A DNA stretch of 64,000 bases from Torpedo marmorata (lineage: Eukaryota): assembly GCA_977017645.1 (NCBI GenBank), contig OZ360231.1:47554001-47618000 (forward strand). The letters run 5' to 3'. Both the position numbers and the translations under genes were made by a program. Shown here in pieces: positions 5,946-60,770 of this stretch (within the stretch, counting starts at the first letter, position 1; the number at the start of each line of letters is the position of its first letter). The notes under the pieces were generated by a model. It made no database searches, was not told where the DNA came from, and saw only the letters and a program-made list of their open reading frames with translations.

Positions 5946-6422
5946 AAGGATTGCCGGTTTCTACAAATCAGAAGAACAGCTTCCCTGCTTCTTTCTGGAG
6001 TAGCACGTATCAGGGCCCAACACCGCCCTGCCTGAGTGGGAGTCGTCCCGATTTCTCCGCAGCCGCCGCTGGTGTGTTTCATTCCCCTGATTCCATGGCT
6101 TGGCCTGGACACGGACTACACCAGCCAAGCGCTGCCCCACCAAACGCTGAGGCGTGGCCCTACACGTTGGCATCACAAGGGAGTTCCAGCTACCCACTGG
6201 TCCACGACGTTTACCCTCACGTTCACCACCCACATGCCCACGCCCACCATCATAATCCGCATCTCGACCCTCGTTATGGGTCATTGTTGGTGCCGTCGGT
6301 GAGGGCAGCGAGGATTGCGGCAGGACCAGGGGAGATCACAAAAACAGACGCCGCTGCTGCAGCTGCCGCTTGGACCGGAGCCTTTCATGGAACCCTAGAC
6401 GTGGCGCAGGGAGTAGACACAG
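5946..6422 (+). CDS. VGLL3: VGLL3 coding exon 3
   Basis: Acceptor gttttttcag. The peptide NSFPASFWSSTYQ..PPCLSGSRPDF..WPGHGLHQ..AWPYTLASQ..His-rich..RAARI..EITKT..AWTGAFHGTLD fits VGLL3 better than VGLL2. Donor G|gtgaga, phase 1. Confidence 0.95.
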
Positions 6423-6543
6423 GTGAGATTAATGTTTAGATCGATGGTTGCTGAATATATATGTCCTCGAAGTTTTTTTTTATAACATTGCTTGCATTAG
6501 TTACCTATTTCAAATATTATGTTTCAGCAAAGCCACGATAGAA

Positions 6544-6847
6544 TTTCAGATTCAGATTTATTGTCAGAGTACACTCATGACATCACATACAACCCTGAGA
6601 TTCTTTTTCCTGTGGGCGAGGCAGAATTACTACTTATTGGCAGTGCAAAAAAACTCTACACAACGTACACATGTAAACAAACTGTGTGCAATACAGAGAG
6701 GAAAAAATCAATAAAGTGCAAAAGTAAGAGTCCTTAAATGAGTCCCTGATTGAGTTCATTGTTGAGGAGTCTGATGGTGGAGGGGTAGCAGCTGTTCCTG
6801 AACCTGGTGGTGCGAGTCTTGTGGCACCTATACCTCTTTCCTGATGG
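6544..6847 (-). mobile_element. Rex1-type LINE 3' end fragment
   Basis: Same family as the copies at 3272 and 39608; ends in a (tctgaa)n tail on the - strand. Confidence 0.85.
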
Positions 6848-7297
6848 TAAAATGACAAGTAGTTACATTTATAAAGTGACTTTCGGAACTCTCTGGTCTT
6901 CATCCTACGCAAACCCCTCCCACTCAACCCAGGTTTTACCCAACGTGCTTTTGAGTCAATAATTTTACAAGTTCAGCCACTCAGTTAGCAGGAGCTTAGC
7001 TCATCAAAAATGCGATATGAGAAAGGACCGGATGATTGGTTTTAGTGATGCTGATTGGGGCATAAAGGTTTCCTACTTTAATATGCTGCTTTTCTTTGAA
7101 ATGTTACCTTTGGCCCATTCTACCCAAGAGAGCAGGGAGCTGGTTGGATTTAACATCTCATCCAAAAGATTACTTCCAATAGCATTTCTTCAATATTTTA
7201 TTGGAGTGACTGTTTAGATTTATGCTCAAGTTAAATTTGCAGGTAAACAATGGAAATGTTGAATTTAATGATTAAAAAAGCATTGATTTCAATGTTT

Positions 7298-7385
7298 TCA
7301 AGTTCGTTTATTATCATCCAATTGTACAAGTACAACCCGGCGAAAGAGTGTTCTCCGGTCCTCGGTGCAAGAACATGCAAATACT
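7298..7385 (-). mobile_element. Rex1-type LINE tail (second subfamily)
   Basis: tttattatcatcc..gtacaagtacaacc..ttctccggtcctcggtgc is shared with the copies at 24763, 30846 and 35445. Confidence 0.75.
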
Positions 7386-8334
7386 GTACACATATGGACA
7401 TCACAGAATAGCAATTAATATAATATGAATCATGGAAGTTAATAGCACAAAAATAGCAGAAAGTCTGTATTTATTAACTATGTGAAGGACAATTAGGGAA
7501 TAGAGTTCTTCTGGTGAAGGTACTCCCAAGATATAGATGGGTGGTGAGATCTACAACTTTGATCCAGTGATGATGAAGGAACATTGAAACACATCTGAGG
7601 AAGGGGTGTGAGTTGGATAGGCATCTGTAGGTGGTGATGTTTTCATGTGCCTGCTATTCCTGTCCTTAGTGGTAAATGTAAGTTCTATGCAATCAGAGAA
7701 CTGCATGCAAGTACTTTCTGTGCATTAGTAAAATTATATACACTTGTTGGTGTGTGGAATGAATGTTTGACAGGAGGAGATGCATGTTATTCAAACAGGC
7801 TGCTTTGTCCAGGATAGTAGGAAGTGTCTTCTGTACTGTAGGAGCCACATACATGCATTCTTGACTTGTACCCTGTAGACAGTGGATAAGTGGATCAGTA
7901 GAGCAGGTACTTGCCACAGGCTATCCAGCCTCTGTGTTCATCATAGTATTTATGTGATTAATCCAGTTGAGTTTCTGGTCAATGGTTGCCCTAGGGTGGT
8001 GGATGATTCAGTGATTGTAAAGCCATTGAACATCATGATAATTTGTTTGCCATTTGTGTGATAGAGATGTGATGTACTACTGCAGGCACAGGCTGCTTTT
8101 TTGAACAGTGACAAAAACACAATATTATGCAACCATCAAGAACATCCCACTACAAACTGTACCATAGCTATGGCCTATTATTATCTTCTACAAATTTGAC
8201 CTTACTTCATTGATCTTATACTCTACAAATTATAAAATTCAAAATGCTCAATTTCTAATGCTGATAGCTAATTACATTCTCACTGTTATATTTGTCACCT
8301 TCCAATTCATTATGCCCTTCTGAATGTCTTTTGT

Positions 8335-8368
<34 letters not shown>

Positions 8369-8425
8369 TTTAGGTAAGGTTGATCTTCACTATAAAATAG
8401 TGCTCAACACGTAATGTGGAGCTAA

Positions 8426-8585
8426 ATAAATAAGTAAACAGAAAAGCACACTACTCACATGTGCCCGACAAGCTTGTTTCGTGGATCTTTCCACTCTTCA
8501 GGGGAAGAGTGGAAGAGTGGAAAGATCCACGAAACAAGCTTGTCGGGCACATGTGAGTAGTGTGCTTTTCTGTTTACTTATTTAT
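8426..8585. repeat. Perfect inverted repeat (74-bp arms, 12-bp spacer) near two (TA)n microsatellites
   Basis: 8426-8499 is the exact reverse complement of 8512-8585. (TA)n tracts lie at about 8338-8364 and 8583-8604. Confidence 0.95.
8464..8504 (-). ncRNA. Minimal type-I hammerhead ribozyme motif (Penelope-like element type)
   Basis: The - strand reads CCC CUGAAGA GUGGA-AAGA-UCCAC GAAA C-AAGCUU-G UC GGG: full CUGANGA/GAAA/GUC core, 5-bp stem II, palindromic stem III and 3-bp stem I. Confidence 0.75.
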
Positions 8586-10862
8586 ATATATATATATATA
8601 TATAAAATAAATGCATGTGTGTCATTTTTTTTTTTTCCCTATGGCATGTTTCCAACCAATTCTCCCCTGGCAAGTCACATTTTTCCATGTTATGTTGCAC
8701 TTACCAGCTTGTAGCTTCTGTGCATCTGTTAATTGTCAGCAAGTCTTTTATAATTCTTTTTGGTATTGGATATACCGTAGGTCATCAACAAACTTCAATA
8801 TGAAGCCTATTATCCAAGTCCAAACACAAACAGGAATATTCCAATGAAACACTCATTCTGGGGCATAATATTAGCAATTCTTCTCTATTTTACACCATTT
8901 GTATTTATCCTCATATCTTACACACATAAAGTAATATGGGTATTGAATATACTCAGCAGACCGTTAGTGAGAGAAACAGGGATTGCATTTCAGATTCAGA
9001 ATTAATTTTACCCCAACTCCATTTTCTGTTCAGTAACAAATGTTCCCATCTATGATAACACCATGCACCTTTTCAACAAGTTTCAAAAAGTAATACTTAC
9101 TAAATACTCTCTGAAAATCTCTTGTCACCATACCTCTTGCTTTCCCTTTGTCAACCTCTGAATATTTAGTGCACATCTGTACAGTATTGAAATTGCCAGG
9201 TATTATTTGCTTCTAACAAATCTGTAATGGCTGTTTTAATCACTCTATACTTTCACTCAAAGTCACACAAATTCTGCCTTGAAAAAGAAATATGAAATTT
9301 TCCTCAAATGTAATGTTACTACCAATTCCATAATAAACCAGTTTAGCTCTCTCTTCCTTTGTCAACATAACATTAACAATAGGTGTCCTCCAACCATCAC
9401 AGCACATTTTGCATATCCAAGAATGATAGAAAATATTGAGGCCAGGTGCTCCACTCAATTCTTTCCAATTTCTTTCAGTTGCCCAGGGATGTACCATAAA
9501 GACTTGCTGGATTATCCACTCAAGTTCTGTTAATATTTTCAGAGCCAATGAGCCAGCTCCCATTCCTTTCACCTGGAATCACTACCCTCAGTCTCTTCAC
9601 ATCCACACCTACCTATTCTGAATGCTCAGGGCGTTCTTACTAGTCCAAAGCAACTAGAATTACAGTGGTTTGATCTCAGCACCAGCAGAGCTCTGGCAGT
9701 GCAATAAGAAGGTCCGTTCCAAAAATTGCTTTGAATGTTTTGGCTTTGAGGTATTTTTAATAGTCTTTATGTGTTCCACTTGTTCAAAGATATTAACATT
9801 TTAAAGTGAATACATTTTTAAAAGGTTAAGAAAATTTGAATACAGAACATTAAACGAAAGAAATTTATTTTTCCATATGCCGACTACTCCATAGCCCTAC
9901 ACATCCCCAGGGGTGTCAATGGGGTATCAGATGCTGCACCAGGAAATTACCTCAGTGTAAAATTAGGAAATTTCAGCTCTGGCCTTATCAATTTGTCATT
10001 GAATCTAGATCTTGCAGAGTTCACAGATTATGTATGGTAATCCCACATTTGCTGCTGAGATTCTCTACGGATCTAGTCCAATGTCTTTTCTAACTACAAA
10101 ATGGTTTTGGCTCAAATTTTCTTTTTCTATTAATTTGGAGTGGCCAGTTGAGCATATACTCCAGACTTCATAACATATTGCACAGTAAAAGAAACATAAT
10201 CTGATTCTAATTGGTACTCCAAGTGTTCCATTTAGTCATTTGGTCTCACCCTACCAGAAATATTCCCATCCTTCCTCCACTTTCTCTGCTACTGAAAACT
10301 ATATTTTTCTCTCTTTCCAGTTCTAACCTGAAACATTAACAGTTTCTCTTTCTACCATTGCTGCCTCACCTGCTGACTATTTTCTTAATTTTTAGCTATC
10401 TTAACTTGTCTTTATTATTTTGCCTTTAAAAAAAAAGAAATGCTTTTCTAAACATTTTAACATTCTATGCCAGCATTCCTTCCACAATCCCATTTAGAAT
10501 TAAGTGATGCATGAATAGAGAAGTAAAATGGATTTACATGACTCTACGCTGCAGTTTGTTTACAATTTAAAGTGAGGTTCACACAATAACATAGTGATGG
10601 AATCATCAATCACTTTAGTACTCAGCCTCACAGATGTGCCCAAACAGTCTGATGCAAGGACAGATAGAAGTTGTTCATTATCCCTTTCTAATCAGATGAA
10701 TGTTGAAAGTTGTTTATTTTAAGAATCAGTTTGAGGAGGGATTCAACTATTTTACTCCTTTATATTTGTTCCAAAAGTGTTGATGGTTTTATAGTTATTC
10801 CTGATAAAGCAGAAAATTGTATTTTAAAGCTATTGTTCCTATATTTCCAATTCTTTCATTAG

Positions 10863-10906
10863 GACTCCTACATCAAGAGAAAAACAAGGAGACCACTTGG
10901 TTCTAG
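10863..10906 (+). CDS. VGLL3: VGLL3 coding exon 4 (C-terminus and stop)
   Basis: Acceptor ttctttcattag, phase 1, giving (G)LLHQEKNKETTWF*; compare human VGLL3 GLQHQDKSKESPWY*. The four exons total 876 nt (291 aa plus stop), all in frame. Confidence 0.92.
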
Positions 10907-16089: not shown

Positions 16090-16220
16090 ACGTTGAAGAA
16101 GAAGGGCTCAGGCTCGAAACGTCGGTAAAATATCTTTACCTCCTATGGACGCTGCGAGACCAGCATTTATTTGTGTTTTTACTGCAATCACAAGCGTCTG
16201 CAGACTTTCGTGTTTCATTA
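16090..16220 (+). mobile_element. Penelope-like terminal repeat fragment
   Basis: gaagggctcaggctcgaaacgtcggt..gtctgcagactttcgtgttt; same family as the copy at 32746. Confidence 0.6.
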
Positions 16221-21400: not shown

Positions 21401-23061
21401 TTCAACAACTGTCAGAAATTCCCGAATTGTATTTGTAAGTTCGATAAAGGACCTGTGTGTGAGAAAACAACATTTAAAGATATTTATAGTATTTTAAATA
21501 TGGCTGGAAATAAATGCAGTAATAACTCTAAAAATTTATTTGTTTGACTCAAAATCATTTCTACATTTCCTCTATCCAGAGTTTAATTGGAAGTCTTAAG
21601 GGAGCCCCGTGAACTGAGCTGTCAAAACATAGCATCGACTTTACTGCATTCCTGTATAATTAGACAGATGACTATGCTAACAATCATATACACAATGCCA
21701 GCTGTTTGAAGCTTAATGCTTCATAAGCATTACCATCCTTTCAAGGTACTAAACCATATGGCAATCATGGGAAGTTTTCCTTTTTTACTTAAGCTATACT
21801 TTTTATACAAACGCTGAAACCTTGTTAGCTCTGAGCGAACAATTTGAACCAATTTGTTCGCTTTTAGAAACTTATGCCAAAATATCCATCATGTGTCTGC
21901 CACAGAGCATTTTGTGCCAATGTTTGTGTAACTGCATACAGTAAAAACACAGTTTTTAATTTAAAGATGGGTGAAAGGCGAATACCAGTCATATGTGGAG
22001 ATAAGTAATTGCAGCTGCTGTATTATACTGAAGATTTTGCTTTTGACCAAGTGATGTGTTGTGGCTCTAATTAATGACAATGAGTCAAAAAAGCCATAAT
22101 TATATAAAATTTATGTCCTCGACCATCCTTTAGAATATGAAATAAAAGTTTACAAATAAATGTTTATACTGTCAATTATAAATTATAATTTTAAAAGTCA
22201 ACTTCAGCAATTCCATTTTTAATGGACCTGTTAAACTGATACTTTTATAATTTTACATATTTCTGACATGTAAATGAAACCTGTGCACATGTTAAACCAA
22301 TGCTTTTTTGTGAATACTTGCTAACTACAATGAAATAGAAAATCCATTAATAAGAACACAGCAACAACTGATAAATACCAAAGCAACAATCAGAACACTG
22401 TTTCCACTTTGTTGCAGCCAAGATCTAGGCCGTTCCTCAATATTGTGGGTATGAAATTAGTGATTCTTTATCAAAGATTGTTTTTTTTTTAAACTAACTA
22501 AATATGATGAATATTTTTGAAAGTGCTTTCTGATGAATTAACTTTGATTGAATTCGATCATTTTGTGTTAGAGAAAAAGGAAGATTGCGAATTTGGATAG
22601 GTAGCTGTCTCATTTTCTTCTATTTTAATGTTGCCAAATTTTAATGAATGACAAATGATCATGCCAATAATGGAAATGGATTGTGTAAATAGATACCACT
22701 AAAGTCTAAATCATCAAATGTCCAGACATATGACATGAAAGGTATTTACAGAACTGCTTATGTTGAAGCCTTCAAATTGTCCAAACTGAATTTAGCAGAA
22801 ATCTTGCTGATAGGAAGCCTTCAAATTTTTAAACCTTTTCACAGTATTTCAAATTACTTTGTATCAAATATATTATTAAATGTCAGGTTGCTTTGTATCA
22901 AAATCTTACCCAATTAAAAAAGGTTGAATACAGAAATTCCTACAGTTAAGTTTTATTTTAAATTTCTCATGTGAAATATTGTGAAATATCCAAAAATTTA
23001 AAGAACATAGGAAGTGTAGTTACACTGAAACTGCCAACACCCATGTAGTTCATCTGCAGTT

Positions 23062-23296
23062 GCCTGAATACGACTGGGATTGTCTGATCTCGGAAGCTAA
23101 GCAGGCACAGGACTGGTCAGTACTTGGAGGGGAGACCACCAAGGAACACCAGGTGCTGTAGGTTTCTGTGAGGGGCGCTGGACAAAATAGCGACCCTCTG
23201 TCTGCCTTACAGTAGACAAAAATTAAAGAATTTCATGTATGTTACATTCTAAATGTAGTATTACGTGACAATAATGGTACCTTTACCTTTACCTTT
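23062..23296 (+). mobile_element. 5S rRNA-derived SINE (SINE3-type), 5'-truncated
   Basis: gcctgaatacg..gtctgatctcggaagctaagcagg..tggtcagtacttggaggggagacc..ccaggtgctgtagg is 5S-like. It is followed by a non-5S body and a tgacaataa..(accttt)n tail. Confidence 0.88.
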
Positions 23297-32745: not shown

Positions 32746-32893
32746 GATTACTTTGATGAAGGGCTCAAGCCCGAAACGTCGGTAATGTATTTCTACCTTT
32801 GCTACATAAAATACACTGTTTGACCTGCTGAGTTTCTCCAGCATTTGTGTTTTTTACTTCAACCACGGTGTCCACCGATTTTCGTGATTTACT
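32746..32893 (+). mobile_element. Penelope-like terminal repeat with a minimal hammerhead-like motif
   Basis: attact TTGATGA a gggct-ca-agccc GAAA C GTC ggtaat, followed by tgacctgctgagtttctccagcatt. Confidence 0.65.
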
Positions 32894-53325: not shown

Positions 53326-53560
53326 ATAGCCTGAATACGACTGGGATTGTCTGATCTTGGAAGCTAAGCAGGCACAGGACTGGTCAGTACTTGGAGGGGA
53401 GACTGCCAAGGAACACCAGGTGCTGTAGGTTTCTGTGAGGGGCGCTGGACAAAGTAGCGACTCCCTGTCTGCCTTACGGTAGACAAAAATTAAAGAATTT
53501 CATGTATGTTACATTCTAAATGTAGTATTACGTGACAATAATGGAACCTTTAACCTTTAA
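53326..53560 (+). mobile_element. 5S rRNA-derived SINE, second copy
   Basis: Nearly identical to 23062-23296 across the 5S head, body and tail. Confidence 0.88.
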
Positions 53561-54502: not shown

Positions 54503-55410
54503 TGTTATGGACCATGACTGACCATTTGGACTGCGGACGGTCAGCAGGAAGGATGAAGTCTTTTGGAGTATACACTGGGGCCAGGTACTGAAAGAGTTAA
54601 CTTCCCCAGGACTTGGTGTACCCAGACAGAGAGAGAGACATTGTTGCACTTTTGGTGTACCCAGACAGAGAGAGACCACACAGAGAGAGAGACAGACTGT
54701 GGACAAGATACATTTGTTGCACTTTTGCAAAGGCAGGTGCAGATCTCTGCACAAAGTACACAGTTGTGAATTGCAAAGGCTAGAGAACACAGCCAAATCC
54801 AGGCTTGTGCATAGTCAGAGAAAAGACTGGCAGAATAGCACATGGCCTCCTGTCTCAGAGAAATTCTGAGTTAAAAGCAACTTCTGTGGAGAACAGGCGT
54901 GAGATCAGCGAGACTAGCTGTGAGATTCAAGCACACGCCTAAATCAGTGGTATACTGATCTGAACTCGAAATCCTTATGAACACACAAGAAGGGGACGTC
55001 ATCAGAGAAGAAAAACAAGTATTTGTAAGCATAAACAGTCATTGTCTCTCTCCAACGTTCATTCAGAAGTACTTCTACCAGACACAGAGCTGAATTTGAA
55101 GCCTGAACTTAGAGAGTGAATTTTGTGGACTATTATTTTCTTTTTTGACTGACTTGTTTTTATGACTGACCTGGGGTTTTTGGGGAAAGTTTTTCCATTT
55201 TTACATAAGGGTTGGGCACAGACTGTAATGGTCTGGGCTTTACACACACACACACACACACACCTTTTAGATAAGAATAGTGTTTATAGACGTTTATAGT
55301 GGGGTTAATTGTTGTGAAATTATATGTTTACTTGTCTTTAATAAATAGTAATTTCAATTTTACCCCTTTTGCATTGCGTCTTCTGTCGTTGCTGGTTTGA
55401 ATTTGTAACA
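54503..55410 (+). repeat. 5' LTR
   Basis: tgttatggac...tttgtaaca, near-identical to 59531-60432. Confidence 0.95.
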
Positions 55411-55413
55411 AAT

Positions 55414-55432
55414 TGGGGGCTCGTCCAAGGAT
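55414..55432 (+). promoter_or_regulatory. Primer binding site (tRNA-Pro type)
   Basis: tgggggctcgtcc sits 3 nt after the 5' LTR and matches the first 13 nt of the canonical tRNA-Pro PBS TGGGGGCTCGTCCGGGAT. Confidence 0.85.
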
Positions 55433-55544
55433 TTGAATCAAAATCCATCTTGGTAATTGAAGGAATCCCAGTTTGGTTTAAGGCATTCCTTTTGTAAAGC
55501 TAATTAAAAGCTAGTGTGTGTGTGTTAAAAAAAACCCAGCAACA

Positions 55545-58500
55545 ATGGATGTAGAACATTTTTTGGAATCACCTGAACCTGATATTTTTAAAAAGGCGAA
55601 AAAGCAACAGTTAGTGGCTATAGCAACAAAGCTGGGCATTGCTTCTGTAAAAGCATCTATGAAAAAGGCAGAGATTGGGAGAAAAATTGTCAAATACTAT
55701 ATAAAAGAAAAAAAATTTGAGGAGAGCATGTTAGAGCAGTTTCCCAAGGGTAAACCTTCTGAAAACATACAATTGGAAATAAAGAAATTGGAATTGGAAC
55801 AAAAGAAATTGGAGGCAGACAGGGAACAAAAGAATAGGGAATTGGTACAAAGGAAATTAGAATTGGAGGTAGCCAGGGGACAGAAGAGATTAGACTTAGA
55901 GAACGAGGAGAAAAATAGGATATATATGCTGGAAAAGATAAAGTTGGAAAATGAGAGGAGACAAGAAGAGCGCCAAGATCAAATTCGTCATCCTGCTGAG
56001 GGGTTTTTGGCTAGTAAAGAAGTTAGGTTGGTTCCTCCATTTGAGGAGGCAGAAATAGATAAGTACTTCCAACATTTTGAGAAGGTGGCTGTGAAATTAA
56101 AATGGCCACAAGACCAATGGTCTCTTATGTCATAAAGTTTAATAAAAGGAAAAGCTCAGCAAGCTTATTCTACTCTTACCACGGAGCAAGCTGCTGATTA
56201 TGAAACGGTGAAGAAGGCTATACTCCAGGCTTATGAGTTAGTTCCAGAGGCTTATAGACAGGTTTAGAAATTTAAAAAGATCAGCAACCCAATATTATAC
56301 AGAGTTTGCCTATGAAAAGGTTGTGTGTTTTGACCGGTGGTGCACATCTAAGGCAGTAAACAATGATTACAATCAATTGAGAGAATTGATAATAATCGAG
56401 GAGATAAAAAGGTGTGTTCCTGAGGATATTAAGGTATACTTAAATGAAAAGGAGGTGAAAACTTGGCAAGATTCAGCTAAATTAGCAGATGAATATGCTT
56501 TAACCCACAAGCCTAAGTGGACGTCAGGTAGAATTTTCCAAAAGGTCACGGTGGATAATCAGAAGCAAGTGGAAAGTAAAATTGGAAGTGGTGTTAAGGA
56601 AAGGGATGAAGGAAAGTGGAAAAGGGAAAACAATTCGGGTCCCATTTGCCACTACTGTAGGAAGGCTGGTCATATGCTAGCAAGCTGTCCAGTGTTGAAA
56701 AAGAAGAGAGAAAAGGATGCAACACCTAATGCTTGTATTCAGAGTGAGAAGATGCATAACACCCAGGAAGGAGATAAATTTACTGACAAAGTTAAAGATG
56801 TATTTAAACCTTTTGTGACTGATGGTTTTGTTTCAGTTAAGGCAGGATCAAAACAAGTTCCAGTGAAAATCTTGCGAGATACTAGAGCTGCTCAGTCACT
56901 TGTGTTAGATAGTGTCTTGGAATTTTGTGAAGCTACTGACACCGGTGACATAAATTTAATTAAAGGAATTGGTGGTGAGGTTGAGTCCATTCCTTTGCAC
57001 AAAATAGTATTGGACTCAGACTTAGTGGAAGGACCAGTTATAATAGGAGTGAGATCAGAGTTGCCAGTAGAAGGAGTTTCACTATTGTTAGGCAATGACT
57101 TGGCCAAGGGTAAAGTAGTTCCTGCTGTGCGAATGACCACTAAGCCAGTCATTGATAAGTCAGAGAAAGACTATGATATTTATCCGGCATGTGCCATAAC
57201 CAGGGCCATGTCTAAGAAAAATGTCACTGTAGAGAAGGCAGTGGAAAATAACTTGGTAAAAGAAAAAGACAGTGATAATCAAGAAAACCTGGAAAAGGTT
57301 GAGCAATCTCCTATGTTACACCCATCCACTGATAAGACACCTAAAGGCACAGATTTGTCACTATCCCGACAGGAGTTAATAGCAAGACAAAAGGACGATC
57401 CTGATCTTGCTGAGGTGAGGGATAAGGTTCCCTCTGAAGAGGAGATTAAAAAGGTGCCAGTAGGTTATTATGAAAAAGATGGGGTGTTGATGAGAAAGTG
57501 GAGACCATGTGATGTTCCTGCCAATGAAGAATGGGCAGTAGTGCAGCACGTTGTGATCCCTAAAGTATATAGGGATGCAATAATAACTTTGGCTCATAGT
57601 ACACACTTAGGTGGTCACCTTGGGGTGAAGAAAGCTATACGGAAGATAATGAAACAATTTTATTGGCCCAGTTTAAGAAGGGAGGTTGTAAGCTTTTGCC
57701 GGGCCTGTCACACTTGTCAGGTGGTCGGTAAACCTAATCAGGGTTCCCCGGTGGCACCCTTGCAACCTATCCCTGCATTTAGTGAGCCTTTCTCGAGAGT
57801 AATTGTGGATTGTGTTGGCCCATTGCCCAAAACCAAAGTGGGGAATGAGTATTTGTTAACAATTATGTGTGCAGCCACCAGATTTCCAGAGGCCATTCCT
57901 CTGAGAAACATAAAAGCAAAGTCAATTGTAAAGGCTATGGTAAAGTTTTTCACCTTGGTAGGTTTGCCAAGGGAAATTCAATCAGATCAGGGCAGTACTT
58001 TCATGTCAGGCGTTTTCCAACAAGTGGTTGATGGACTAGGAGTTAAACAGATTGTATCCTCTGCGTACCATCCAGAAAGTCAAAGGGCCTTGGAGAGGTT
58101 CCATTCGACTTTGAAAACCATGATTAGAACCTATTGTTGTGAGAAGGAAAAGGATTGGGATGAGGGGGTTCATTTGTTGTTATTTGCAGCGAGGGAGTCT
58201 GTCCAAGACTCACTTGGTTTTAGTCCATTTGAGTTAGTTTTTGGCCATGAGGTAAGAGGTCCTTTAAAATTATTAAAAGAACAGTGGATTAATCGTGATG
58301 TGCATTTAAATCTGTTAGATTATGTTTCCAAATTTAAGGATCGATTGCATAGGGCTTGTGAGATGGCAAAGGAGAATTTAAAGGCCACTCAACGGAGAAT
58401 GAAGGTTTGGTATGATCGAAAGGCGAAGATGAGAACTTTTAAACCTGGTGAGAACGTATTAGTTCTGTTTCCCATCCATTCAAATCATCTTAGAGCTAGA

Positions 58501-59397
58501 TTTTCAGGACCCTATAGAGTTAAGTCAAAAATTAATGATGTCACCTATGTCATAGAAACACCTAATCGCAGACGAGACACACAGGTCTGTCATGTGAATA
58601 TGATTAAGCCGTATTTTGAACAGGTGCCTCAAAAAGGGGCTGAACATTTACCAGAGATGCTGGTTATTGACAGGGGTAAGGAGGAGATAGATAGAACCAG
58701 TTTCAGAGAGGGTCATGGGACTGTTAATTCTCTGAATTATGTTGTAGGACAGGGGAAGTTGGCGCCAGTAGAGGCAAAGGTTGTGACTATTTCCGAGTTC
58801 CCTGTTCCAACTGGTAAGAAAACTCTGAGGAGGTTCCTGGGAATGATTGGCTACTACCACAAGTTCTGTAAAAACTTTGCTGATCTTGTGCTCCCTCTCA
58901 CAAATTTGCTTAGAAAGAAAGAAAAATTTGTATGGTCAACAGGTTGTCAGGAAGCATTTGTCAAATTGAAAGCCATGTTATGCCACCAACCTGTGCTTAA
59001 GTCACCTAATTTAGAACAGCCGTTTTCTTTAGCCGTGGATGCCAGCGATGAAGCTGTGGGTGCGGTGCTGTTACAGAAGAAGAACGAAGAGGACATTGAC
59101 CATCCGGTATCCTACTTCTCGAAGAAGTTCAATGATCATCAAAGGAATTATTCAACTATAGAAAAAGAGTTGTTGGCTCTTGTGTTGGCTCTACAACACT
59201 TTGATGTGTATATCTGTACAGCTCAAAAACCACTCATAGTGTATACTGACCATAATCCATTGGTTTTTCTTTGTAAAATGAAAAATAAGAATCGACGGTT
59301 GTTGAATTGGAGTCTAATTTTGCAAGAATATAATTTGGTAATCACTCATATAAAAGGGAAAGATAATGTAATTGCTGATTGTCTTTCTAGTTGTTAA
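55545..59397 (+). pseudogene. Disrupted gag-pol of the Gmr1-like element
   Basis: Gag has a stop at 56133-56135 and a frameshift near 56262. Then come the CCHC knuckle CHYCRKAGHMLASC; protease LRDTRAAQSL (DTG changed to DTR); integrase HHCC, VDCVGP/SDQG/ERF and GPY; and RNase H VDASD/EKELLA/TDHNPL/ADCLS. There is no YxDD motif. Confidence 0.9.
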
Positions 59398-59530
59398 ACT
59401 TTATCAATGAAAATAGTTCATATTTTGTATTTGTGGATCAACATTGTAGATTTTGTTTATATTCTTATATTTATATTTACTTTCCTAAATTTTGTTCTTG
59501 CAGACCAAAATTTCCTTTGTGGGTGGGAGG

Positions 59531-60432
59531 TGTTATGGACCATGACTGACCATTTGGACTGCGGACAGTCAGCAGAAAGGATGACGTCTTTTGGAGTATA
59601 CACTGGGGCCAGGTACTGAAAGAGTTAACTTCCCCAGGACTTGGTGTACCCAGACAGAGAGAGAGACATTGTTGCACTTTTGGTGTACCCAGACAGAGAG
59701 AGACCACAGAGAGAGAGAGACAGACTGTGGACAAGATACATTTGTTGCACTTTTGCAAAGGCAGGTGCAGATCTCTGCACAAAGTACGCAGTTGTGAATT
59801 GCAAAGGCTAGAGAACACAGCCAAATCCAGGCTTGTGCATAGTCAGAGAAAAGACTGGCAGAATAGCACATGGCCTCCTGTCTCAGAGAAATTCTGAGTT
59901 AAAAGCAACTTCTGTGGAGAACAGGTGTGAGATCAGCGAGACTAGCTGTGAGATTCAAGCACACGCCTAAATCAGTGGTATACTGATCTGAACTCGAAAT
60001 CCTTATGAACACACAAGAAGGGGACGTCATCAGAGAAGAAAAACAAGTATTTGTAAGCATAAACAGTCATTGTCTCTCTCCAACGTTCATTCAGAAGTAC
60101 TTCTACCAGACACAGAGCTGAATTTGAAGCCTGAACTTAGAGAGTGAATTTTGTGGACTGTATTATTTTCTTTTTTGACTGACTTGTTTTTATGACTGAC
60201 CTGGGGTTTTTGGGGAAAGTTTTTCCATTTTTACATAAGGGTTGGGCACAGACTGTAATGGTCTGGGCTTTACACACACACACACCTTTTAGATAAGAAT
60301 AGTGTTTATAGACGTTTATAGTGGGGTTAATTGTTGTGAAATTATATGTTTACTTGTCTTTAATAAATAGTAATTTCAATTTTACCCCTTTTGCATTGCG
60401 TCTTCTGTCGTTGCTGGTTTGAATTTGTAACA
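59531..60432 (+). repeat. 3' LTR
   Basis: Preceded by the PPT-like gggtgggagg and followed by the TSD atat. Confidence 0.95.
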
Positions 60433-60770
60433 ATATGCATACTTACCCTCCGGAGTGGCCGTTCACACAGGATGGACGTTTACACTAACTTCCTGCATTG
60501 CGGTGATTTCGGAGGGTGGACGTGGGTCGACATCATCAGGTATGTTGTATTCATTAGCCCATTGTTGCGGACCGCCTGCAGTTCAGTTTAGACTGCAGGC
60601 AGTCCGCAAAAATGTCTAAGGCTGCTGCAGTAAAAATGTCGGGACGGAAATTAGTTACTAATTTCTGTCACGACATTTTTACACAGCCAGCGTTGCGGGA
60701 AATTTCCGAGAACTTCCTGTTATGCTGAGGCTGTGTAAAAGTCATAATAGCTTCAAATTTTAAAGCTTTC

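Follow-up and report, generated by a model that had tools for sequence, protein, structure and literature searches.

A 5′-truncated head-to-head insertion of a very young Hydra-type Penelope-like element in VGLL3 intron 3 of Torpedo marmorata, with likely two-strand priming and likely horizontal entry of the family

In the window analysed here (64,000 nucleotides of Torpedo marmorata contig OZ360231.1), a palindrome with a hammerhead ribozyme lies in intron 3 of the VGLL3 gene. With a probability of about 0.75, it belongs to a double insertion, head to head and 5′-truncated, by which a very young Hydra-type Penelope-like element (PLE) entered (TA)n, likely produced by priming on both target strands, and its family likely entered the ray by horizontal transfer. 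The palindrome is not special as a structure, being one of many small head-to-head PLE leftovers. Structures of this kind are known, and the VGLL3 locus is an ordinary example of such debris; the interest lies in the family. If a coral-like family is active in a cartilaginous fish, a cross-phylum transfer into a vertebrate germline would be indicated. The origin of inverted pLTRs with a one-sided tail is treated as an open question in the PLE literature (PMC8557442, PMC11167929, PMC3846280). Because the family offers thousands of near-identical insertions and intact ORFs of 702 aa, it allows direct tests of strand-assigned twin priming, of the start site, and of what the ribozyme does; its footprints are unusually clean for the study of the PLE mechanism.

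Structure of the Insertion and Its Host Gene

The regions 8426–8499 and 8512–8585 are exact reverse complements of 74 bp each, separated by a 12-nt spacer, in agreement with the perfect palindrome described in the first-pass annotation. The hairpin fold has z-scores of −25 and −21 for the two strands against 200 shuffles. The palindrome is only part of the complete insertion, which comprises 221 bp at 8365–8585; the span annotated earlier as the whole feature had left out a 60-nt tail at 8366–8425. Two fragments in head-to-head orientation, one of 140 and the other of 74 nt, make up the insert, and both match a 2,403-bp PLE unit at 100% identity. Its features are as follows:

6423–10862, plus strand: VGLL3 intron 3 (exon 3 ends at 6422; exon 4 is 10863–10906)
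8338–8365, no strand: (TA)14 tract on the left side, the likely target; its last base, 8365, also belongs to the element end
8365–8504, minus strand: long arm, matching unit positions 2264–2403 at 140 of 140 nt, from the ribozyme through the long 3′ end
8366–8425, minus strand: PLE tail of 60 nt between the short and long 3′ ends; in tandem arrays, it falls within the 5′ UTR of the following unit
8464–8504, minus strand: type I hammerhead; stem I CCC (8504–8502) with GGG (8466–8464), core CUGAAGA (8501–8495), stem II (8494–8481), GAAA (8480–8477), palindromic stem III (8477–8468), predicted cut 8467/8466; distal stem I without its 5′ strand
8504–8511, plus strand: junction, an 8-nt tandem duplication of GAAGAGTG on top of the commonest junction of the family
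8512–8585, plus strand: short arm, matching unit positions 2269–2342 at 74 of 74 nt, without the CU of CUGA
8583–8604, no strand: right (TA)11 tract, the likely target

The two arms end at unit positions 2264 and 2269, and both are unchanged relative to the active element. The motif GAAGAGTG is present twice in tandem (8504–8511 and 8512–8519); the junction form without this duplication was found at 11 of the 50 sites listed among the family foldbacks. No CTGA occurs on the plus strand of the insert (0 found), consistent with the earlier remark that the mirrored plus-strand arm lacks CU and is preceded by a duplication. The (TA)n surroundings were also correctly noted, as was the position in VGLL3 intron 3, since the gene lies on the plus strand with the insert between exons 3 and 4. 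The Vg_Tdu domain is encoded in exon 2. Exon 3 is 90% identical to the VGLL3 of Mobula and Hemitrygon, 73–83% to that of sharks, and 49–59% to that of birds, and exon 4 matches the C-terminus of a skate protein. The insert brings two donor-like splice sites into the plus strand of intron 3, at 8372 (AGGTAAG) and 8553 (GTGAGT). No evidence for an effect of the insert on VGLL3 was observed.

Hammerhead Ribozyme

The minus strand reads CCC-CUGAAGA-GUGGA(AAGA)UCCAC-GAAA-C AAGCUU G-UC|GGG, with the GUC site between 8467 and 8466, and around its core stem I has 3 bp, stem II has 5 bp, and stem III is palindromic. All elements of a type I hammerhead were found, namely the CUGANGA / GAAA / NUH core, the G10.1-C11.1 pair, and three stems; the intact minus-strand core and the self-complementary stem III recognized in the first-pass annotation were both real. 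The pattern scan detected one intact motif with a cleavage triplet in the window, at 8464–8504, and Rfam returned no hammerhead match at the gathering score or at E ≤ 10. All Rfam matches to miRNA families scored below the thresholds of those families and are due to the hairpin.

The 10-nt palindrome of stem III has a self-duplex energy of −13.1 kcal/mol; it can form 3 bp alone or a 10-bp intermolecular duplex. Extension of stem I by the 5′ flank is possible in the native unit, with predicted energies of −11.6 kcal/mol for the constrained fold and −16.6 kcal/mol for the free one. The PLE hammerheads have been reported as weakly active and dependent on dimers or protein (PMC11167929, PMC4209133), and the folds predicted for the native unit (extended stem I, 10-bp dimer) would fit this weak activity. 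Compared with the PLE hammerheads described by Cervera and de la Peña 2014 (PMC4209133), the ribozyme shares the type I core, the short stem I, the palindromic stem III, and a possible dimeric fold; it differs in that stem III (3 bp alone, 10-bp duplex) exceeds the minimal motifs and in that the window copy is truncated and masked. Instead of a sharp peak at the ribozyme cut, which would have pointed to cleavage in vivo, the 5′ ends of arms showed only a blurred excess around it, with 20 of 152 at 2296–2305 and two exactly at 2302.

In the window copy, four C remain 5′ of the core, and the complement of the ribozyme sits 5′ on the same strand. For the minus-strand RNA, energies of −83.5 kcal/mol were calculated for the hammerhead fold and −144.2 kcal/mol for the hairpin, a cost of about 61 kcal/mol. 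The ribozyme of this copy is very probably inactive because it is antisense to the host transcript, its stem I is truncated, and its own full complement lies 5′ on the same strand; it is likely carried at the VGLL3 site as a silenced passenger, and folding predicts that the hairpin keeps it locked. The earlier suggestion that the ribozyme would be masked in VGLL3 pre-mRNA was not supported, since the ribozyme strand is antisense to that transcript and the plus-strand RNA thus contains no complete hammerhead. The long hairpin proposed for the pre-mRNA is predicted by folding; as a functional substrate it was not borne out, with about 120 sibling foldbacks and nothing to single out this one.

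The Parent Element and Its Copies

The copy numbers were obtained from pattern searches of the 6.2-Gb genome. The 35-nt ribozyme core has 1,754 exact copies, against 0 for the reversed control. At up to three mismatches, 2,202 matches were found, and some of the additional ones are arms cut within the first bases, like the plus-strand arm in the window. The GIY-YIG/RT parent supposed in the first-pass annotation was located genome-wide as a 2,403-bp unit coding for a 702-aa protein and occurring in tandem arrays of up to six ORFs. In total, 63 full-length ORFs share 99–100% identity, and 57 of them are without an inner stop. Across 30 of the 63 full-length copies, 27 mismatches in 70,817 bp were counted. 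The N-terminal 36-mer gave 78 exact and 6 one-mismatch matches in the genome and none at two or three mismatches; no graded older subfamily was seen at the two sites tested (N-terminal 36-mer and ribozyme core). The CpG observed/expected ratio of the element is 0.87 versus 0.33–0.50 in three other TE stretches of the window, a difference for which youth alone could be sufficient. Foldbacks with a spacer of at most 30 nt number 120 genome-wide.

Judged from its sequences, the family is a young and apparently still active Hydra-type PLE of the ray. The earlier annotation was right in describing the window copy as a recent insertion of a PLE that left an inverted terminal copy; the term "retrozyme-type" was not supported, the parent being an autonomous coding PLE and the insert inverted rather than tandem. 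Contamination as the source of the PLE was excluded because copies sit in chromosome-scale contigs and in the VGLL3 intron of the ray.

Two further observations concern the unit. At C1:255.457–255.473 Mb, six complete ORFs lie in an array of tandem 2,403-bp units that has the long tail and TA at its end; this array is possibly a source locus or a product of rolling reverse transcription. A candidate 96-nt intron (GTGAGT...CTCTAG) at unit positions 2310–2405 in the 5′ UTR would include the two RT start sites as well as the 3′ strand of distal stem I, and recalls the 75-bp intron of Penelope (PMC8557442).

Protein and Clade Assignment

The predicted structure of the 702-aa protein has a pLDDT of 91.9, and TERT structures occupied ranks 1–3 in Foldseek. 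For the RT model, VIA gave a Z of 15.8 with a DGR RT and 15.2 with telomerase. A GIY-YIG endonuclease motif (VIY...YIG) is present at the C-terminus, and the C-terminal part is 63% identical over 180 aa to a protein named in UniRef as GIY-YIG domain-containing. No family or domain was detected in the protein by Pfam, and a profile search of PDB sequences gave no match.

For the Hydra clade of C-terminal EN+ PLEs, Craig et al. 2021 (PMC8557442) give as defining features the motifs RWK and DKT, a linker of the form CxCX5C with CCHH lost, CxxC and CxH as flanking motifs, a hammerhead, and insertion into (TA)n. In the ray protein, RWK and DKT occur as RMRWKAH and ADKTTNF, the linker as CNCRPKAKC, and CxxC and CxH near the C-terminus as CNLC and CPH; CCHH is absent, with no Cys between VIY and YIG. 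The unit is 2,403 bp long (<3 kb), has its hammerhead in the pLTR, and is inserted in (TA)n. The pLTR organization of EN+ PLEs was found as 2,403-bp tandem arrays and as a tail that is one-sided in 58 of 61 inverted pairs. Thus, the element resembles the Hydra clade described in PMC8557442 in its length below 3 kb, single ORF, RWK, DKT, CxCX5C, lack of CCHH, CxxC/CxH around the catalytic E and N, pLTR hammerhead, and (TA)n targets; it is unlike the clade in its vertebrate host with 63 near-identical full-length ORFs and in its tail of about 60 nt versus 30–40. The protein probably belongs to the Hydra clade, a placement made from motifs; the trees below consist of database homologues (74 and 27 sequences).

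Two other assignments were rejected. A Naiad/Chlamys PLE, a type with an N-terminal endonuclease and no canonical hammerhead, was dropped on account of the C-terminal endonuclease motif and the hammerhead. The features of a non-LTR retrozyme were not found, because the insert has a single core in a head-to-head arrangement and the family's tandem units are coding. The non-LTR retrozymes of bioRxiv 10.64898/2026.07.22.740005 are likewise small non-coding hammerhead-bearing PLE derivatives, but they are described there as head-to-tail tandem units, in contrast to the head-to-head truncation of an autonomous element found here.

3′ Ends, Inverted Pairs and the 5′-End Hotspot

Two fixed 3′ ends occur in the family; they are separated by about 60 nt, lie below the ribozyme in the 5′ UTR, and are each joined to TA through TA microhomology. 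Genome-wide, 1,956 short and 1,607 long ends joined to TA were counted with search patterns that required TA; core-selected copies (30 loci) likewise end in TA. The arms were mapped for all listed ends on C1:1–227.6 Mb (100 short and 87 long), giving 188 arms of about 3,560 ends; this sample is a single contig stretch, and the arms of one insertion are not independent counts. Inverted (divergent) pairs within 6 kb combined one short and one long end in 58 of 61 cases, where 30.5 were expected (p = 2e-14). The palindrome is the default product of this PLE family because 140 of the 183 uncensored arms adjoin an inverted arm. The short end is a true start site, because it also terminates solo and full-length copies.

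Long arms stopped at 2330–2351, around the short start site, in 21 of 85 cases, as expected with a second primer there; in equally wide windows on either side, the figures were 2 of 87 and 3 of 64. Six of these 21 stops are joined to host DNA, for which AT-rich sequence alone could favour TA joining.

A 5′-end hotspot was found at 2257–2271, where 51 of 108 arms at risk end (short arms alone, 30/63 vs. 14/77 and 5/33). The rate was the same for solo (12/26) and inverted (39/79) arms, and the genome-wide count falls to 1,177 just upstream. The only TATATAA of the unit, at 2233–2239, lies about 30 nt upstream of the hotspot. Transcription of Penelope has been reported to start within the pLTR (PMC8557442), and we infer a transcription start of the present element at about 2260–2270. 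Full-length copies run past this proposed start site into the upstream unit.

Proposed Integration Mechanism

The following mechanism is considered somewhat more probable than the alternatives together. The endonuclease would nick both strands of the (TA)n target, and the two resulting 3′-OH ends would prime at different start sites, one at the long and one at the short, each via TA microhomology. Both priming sites would be near the 5′ end of the element mRNA, both cDNAs would run off at the transcription start about 30 nt below TATATAA, and their head-to-head joining would leave a palindrome with a tail on one side. For the full-length copies, multimeric or circular templates would have to be added to the model as a second template class. 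A weak point is that overlapping arms, as in the window copy, would need two RNAs or strand displacement.

In LINE-1 twin priming, both target nicks prime cDNA on the element RNA and an inverted 5′ segment results. Under the proposed mechanism, the PLE insertions would resemble these in having an inverted segment from two-nick priming on element RNA, and are unlike them in the two fixed internal sites, the lack of a poly(A) tail, and the arms that often overlap as inverted duplications. No report of twin priming in PLEs was found in the literature searched, which lay mostly outside subscription papers. Circular or multimeric templates have been proposed for PLEs (PMC4209133). PAc of Anolis carolinensis, a Poseidon element studied by Frangieh et al. 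2024 (PMC11167929), similarly has a tail defined by two internal start sites for RT, located downstream of its ribozyme; its targets are likewise AT-rich, with both strands nicked and extended in vitro. Unlike the present element, PAc belongs to another clade (Poseidon), its start sites are in the ORF rather than in the 5′ UTR, and their use is described without a strand difference, whereas here one site per arm was used in 58 of 61 inverted insertions.

A wider account is put forward tentatively, at slightly less than even odds. In it, the family would be the first vertebrate Hydra PLE, which passed from an anthozoan-type host to rays and is still active; the two target strands would be assigned one each to the two RT start sites, run-off at the capped mRNA 5′ end would yield palindromes, and circular or multimeric RNA would yield unit-plus and tandem copies.

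Origin of the Family

The Hydra hosts published in PMC8557442 are cnidarians, a hemichordate, an octopus, a sea cucumber, and a sea louse, that is, aquatic invertebrates only as given in that source. Among the 35 genomes reported in bioRxiv 10.64898/2026.07.22.740005 (31 vertebrate, one chondrichthyan), Hydra is recorded in coral only. In protein searches, the top long matches reached about 74% among the best 120 of 3,234 and the best 120 of 6,138 matches. The named ones among those listed were from Pocillopora, Acropora, Stylophora, Porites, Nematostella, and the bivalve Solemya. No vertebrate name was present among these 240 matches or among the cluster members shown (20 clusters, at most 15 members each, most rows without a species name). 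The ray PLE protein is 69–76% identical to eight of nine named anthozoan proteins; the values for the ninth and for Solemya are 54% and 55%. It groups with Pocillopora elements (FastTree 0.97, 74 sequences; UFBoot 91, 27 sequences) within a clade of UFBoot 100, all other named members of which are anthozoan. The ray branch is long (0.26–0.28).

The element was also found in the runs of four further organisms, with 1, 17, 105, and 112 differing places in 2,401 nt; none of the runs listed with it was of RNA, an outcome uninformative about expression. The organism with 1 differing place may be the sample of this assembly itself. Among 39 differences to the other three (organisms B–D; 40 of 117 rows), 19 fell at third, 10 at first, and 10 at second codon positions, a subset too limited to draw on. 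In organisms C and D, the common variant is about 95% identical to the ray family, with a very high summed contig depth in C; these organisms are either kin of the ray or further transfer hosts. The fish-parasitic copepod Caligus rogercresseyi is among the Hydra hosts (PMC8557442 supplement), and parasites are candidate vectors.

Recent horizontal transfer is likely because a ray carries an element whose closest named relatives are anthozoan and of which no older subfamily was seen. On these sequence comparisons, a horizontal origin from an anthozoan-type donor, possibly via an unsampled intermediate, appears quite probable. Against it, the ray branch is long and the nearest known relatives are only about 75% identical, too distant for a direct donor; moreover, most homologues are ENA, Logan, or JGI records without a name, some of which could be vertebrate. 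Given organisms B–D, the transfer could be older and common to elasmobranchs or other fish. No report of a vertebrate Hydra element was found in the literature searched, which lay mostly outside subscription papers and did not extend to Dfam or Repbase, and the family may already be in a repeat library under a generic name. The ray family is likely a new, horizontally acquired vertebrate member of the Hydra clade.

Alternative Explanations

The inverted arms could also arise by self-priming or snap-back, in which one cDNA or antisense template folds and copies itself (Arkhipova et al. 2013, PMC3846280), with the one-sided tail left by endonuclease resolution (Craig et al. 2021, PMC8557442). 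This explanation is favoured in published work (PMC3846280), many junctions are near-perfect palindromes with short microhomology, arm lengths correlate within pairs (Spearman 0.64, n = 58), and the window copy taken alone fits it, its short arm lying wholly within the long arm. However, in 28 of 58 mixed pairs the short arm extends beyond the long arm by 10 nt or more on the 5′ side, so that each arm has sequence that the other lacks, and in six of the 58 the arms do not overlap at all; neither arm can therefore have been copied from the other. Together with the standing of the short end as a true start site, seen in solo and full-length copies, this makes self-priming improbable as the general route, and two-strand priming is preferred. 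The hotspot at 2257–2271 coincides with the CUGA core and proximal stem I and might thus reflect stalling of RT at a folded ribozyme or bound protein instead of a transcription start, the PAc ribozyme being protein-assisted (PMC11167929). Stalling is nevertheless unlikely: long copies that cross the hotspot sequence a second time stop there in 0 of 31 cases (0 of 21 counting outermost units only) versus 51 of 108 on the first pass, a control weakened by selection for processive events, and the TATA box lies at the expected distance. Finally, perfect palindromes are a known class of assembly and library artefacts. That the inversion is such a foldback artefact is extremely unlikely, given the unequal arms with a tail on one side, the 8-nt duplication at the junction, the 120 siblings with varied junctions and a strict short-plus-long rule, and contigs from the run of another organism in which the same two ends are joined to TA.

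As for the source of the family, an old, overlooked vertebrate Hydra lineage could have been inherited vertically and undergone a recent burst in the ray. Such a history would be in line with the long ray branch, with the 95–99% relatives in organisms B–D, which may be kin, and with the thin vertebrate sampling for Hydra noted above (bioRxiv 10.64898/2026.07.22.740005). It is rendered quite unlikely by the nesting of the protein among anthozoan elements, at 70–76% over 390–640 aa, a level similar to the identity of VGLL3 exon 3 to sharks and above that to birds, as well as by the lack of a graded older subfamily at the two sites and of vertebrate names among the matches and cluster members shown; horizontal entry remains the preferred reading. 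A regulatory role of the hairpin or ribozyme in VGLL3 (as an ADAR or Dicer substrate, in splicing, or as an antisense ribozyme) might be suggested by the 74-bp duplex predicted in the pre-mRNA and by the two donor-like sites (8372 and 8553, plus strand) that the insert adds. It is very unlikely, since the arms are identical to the active element and thus bear no sign of selection, the insert is about 2 kb from each flanking exon, and inverted joining is the default of the family.

Other Features of the Window

The "gaaacgtc" repeats, called common in the first-pass annotation, have 3 occurrences in the window and do represent a family distinct from the PLE, as had been proposed. Two degenerate hammerhead-like "gaaacgtc" motifs of this other repeat family, with no intact CUGA, were found at 16090–16128 and 32747–32785. 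A 5S rRNA-derived repeat, probably a 5S SINE, is located at 23052–23291 (Rfam 41.2 bits), with a second copy of 96% identity at 53329–53559. The region 54503–60433 contains an LTR retroelement-like insertion, in which 911-bp direct repeats of 98.2% identity surround open frames of 206 and 1,051 aa.
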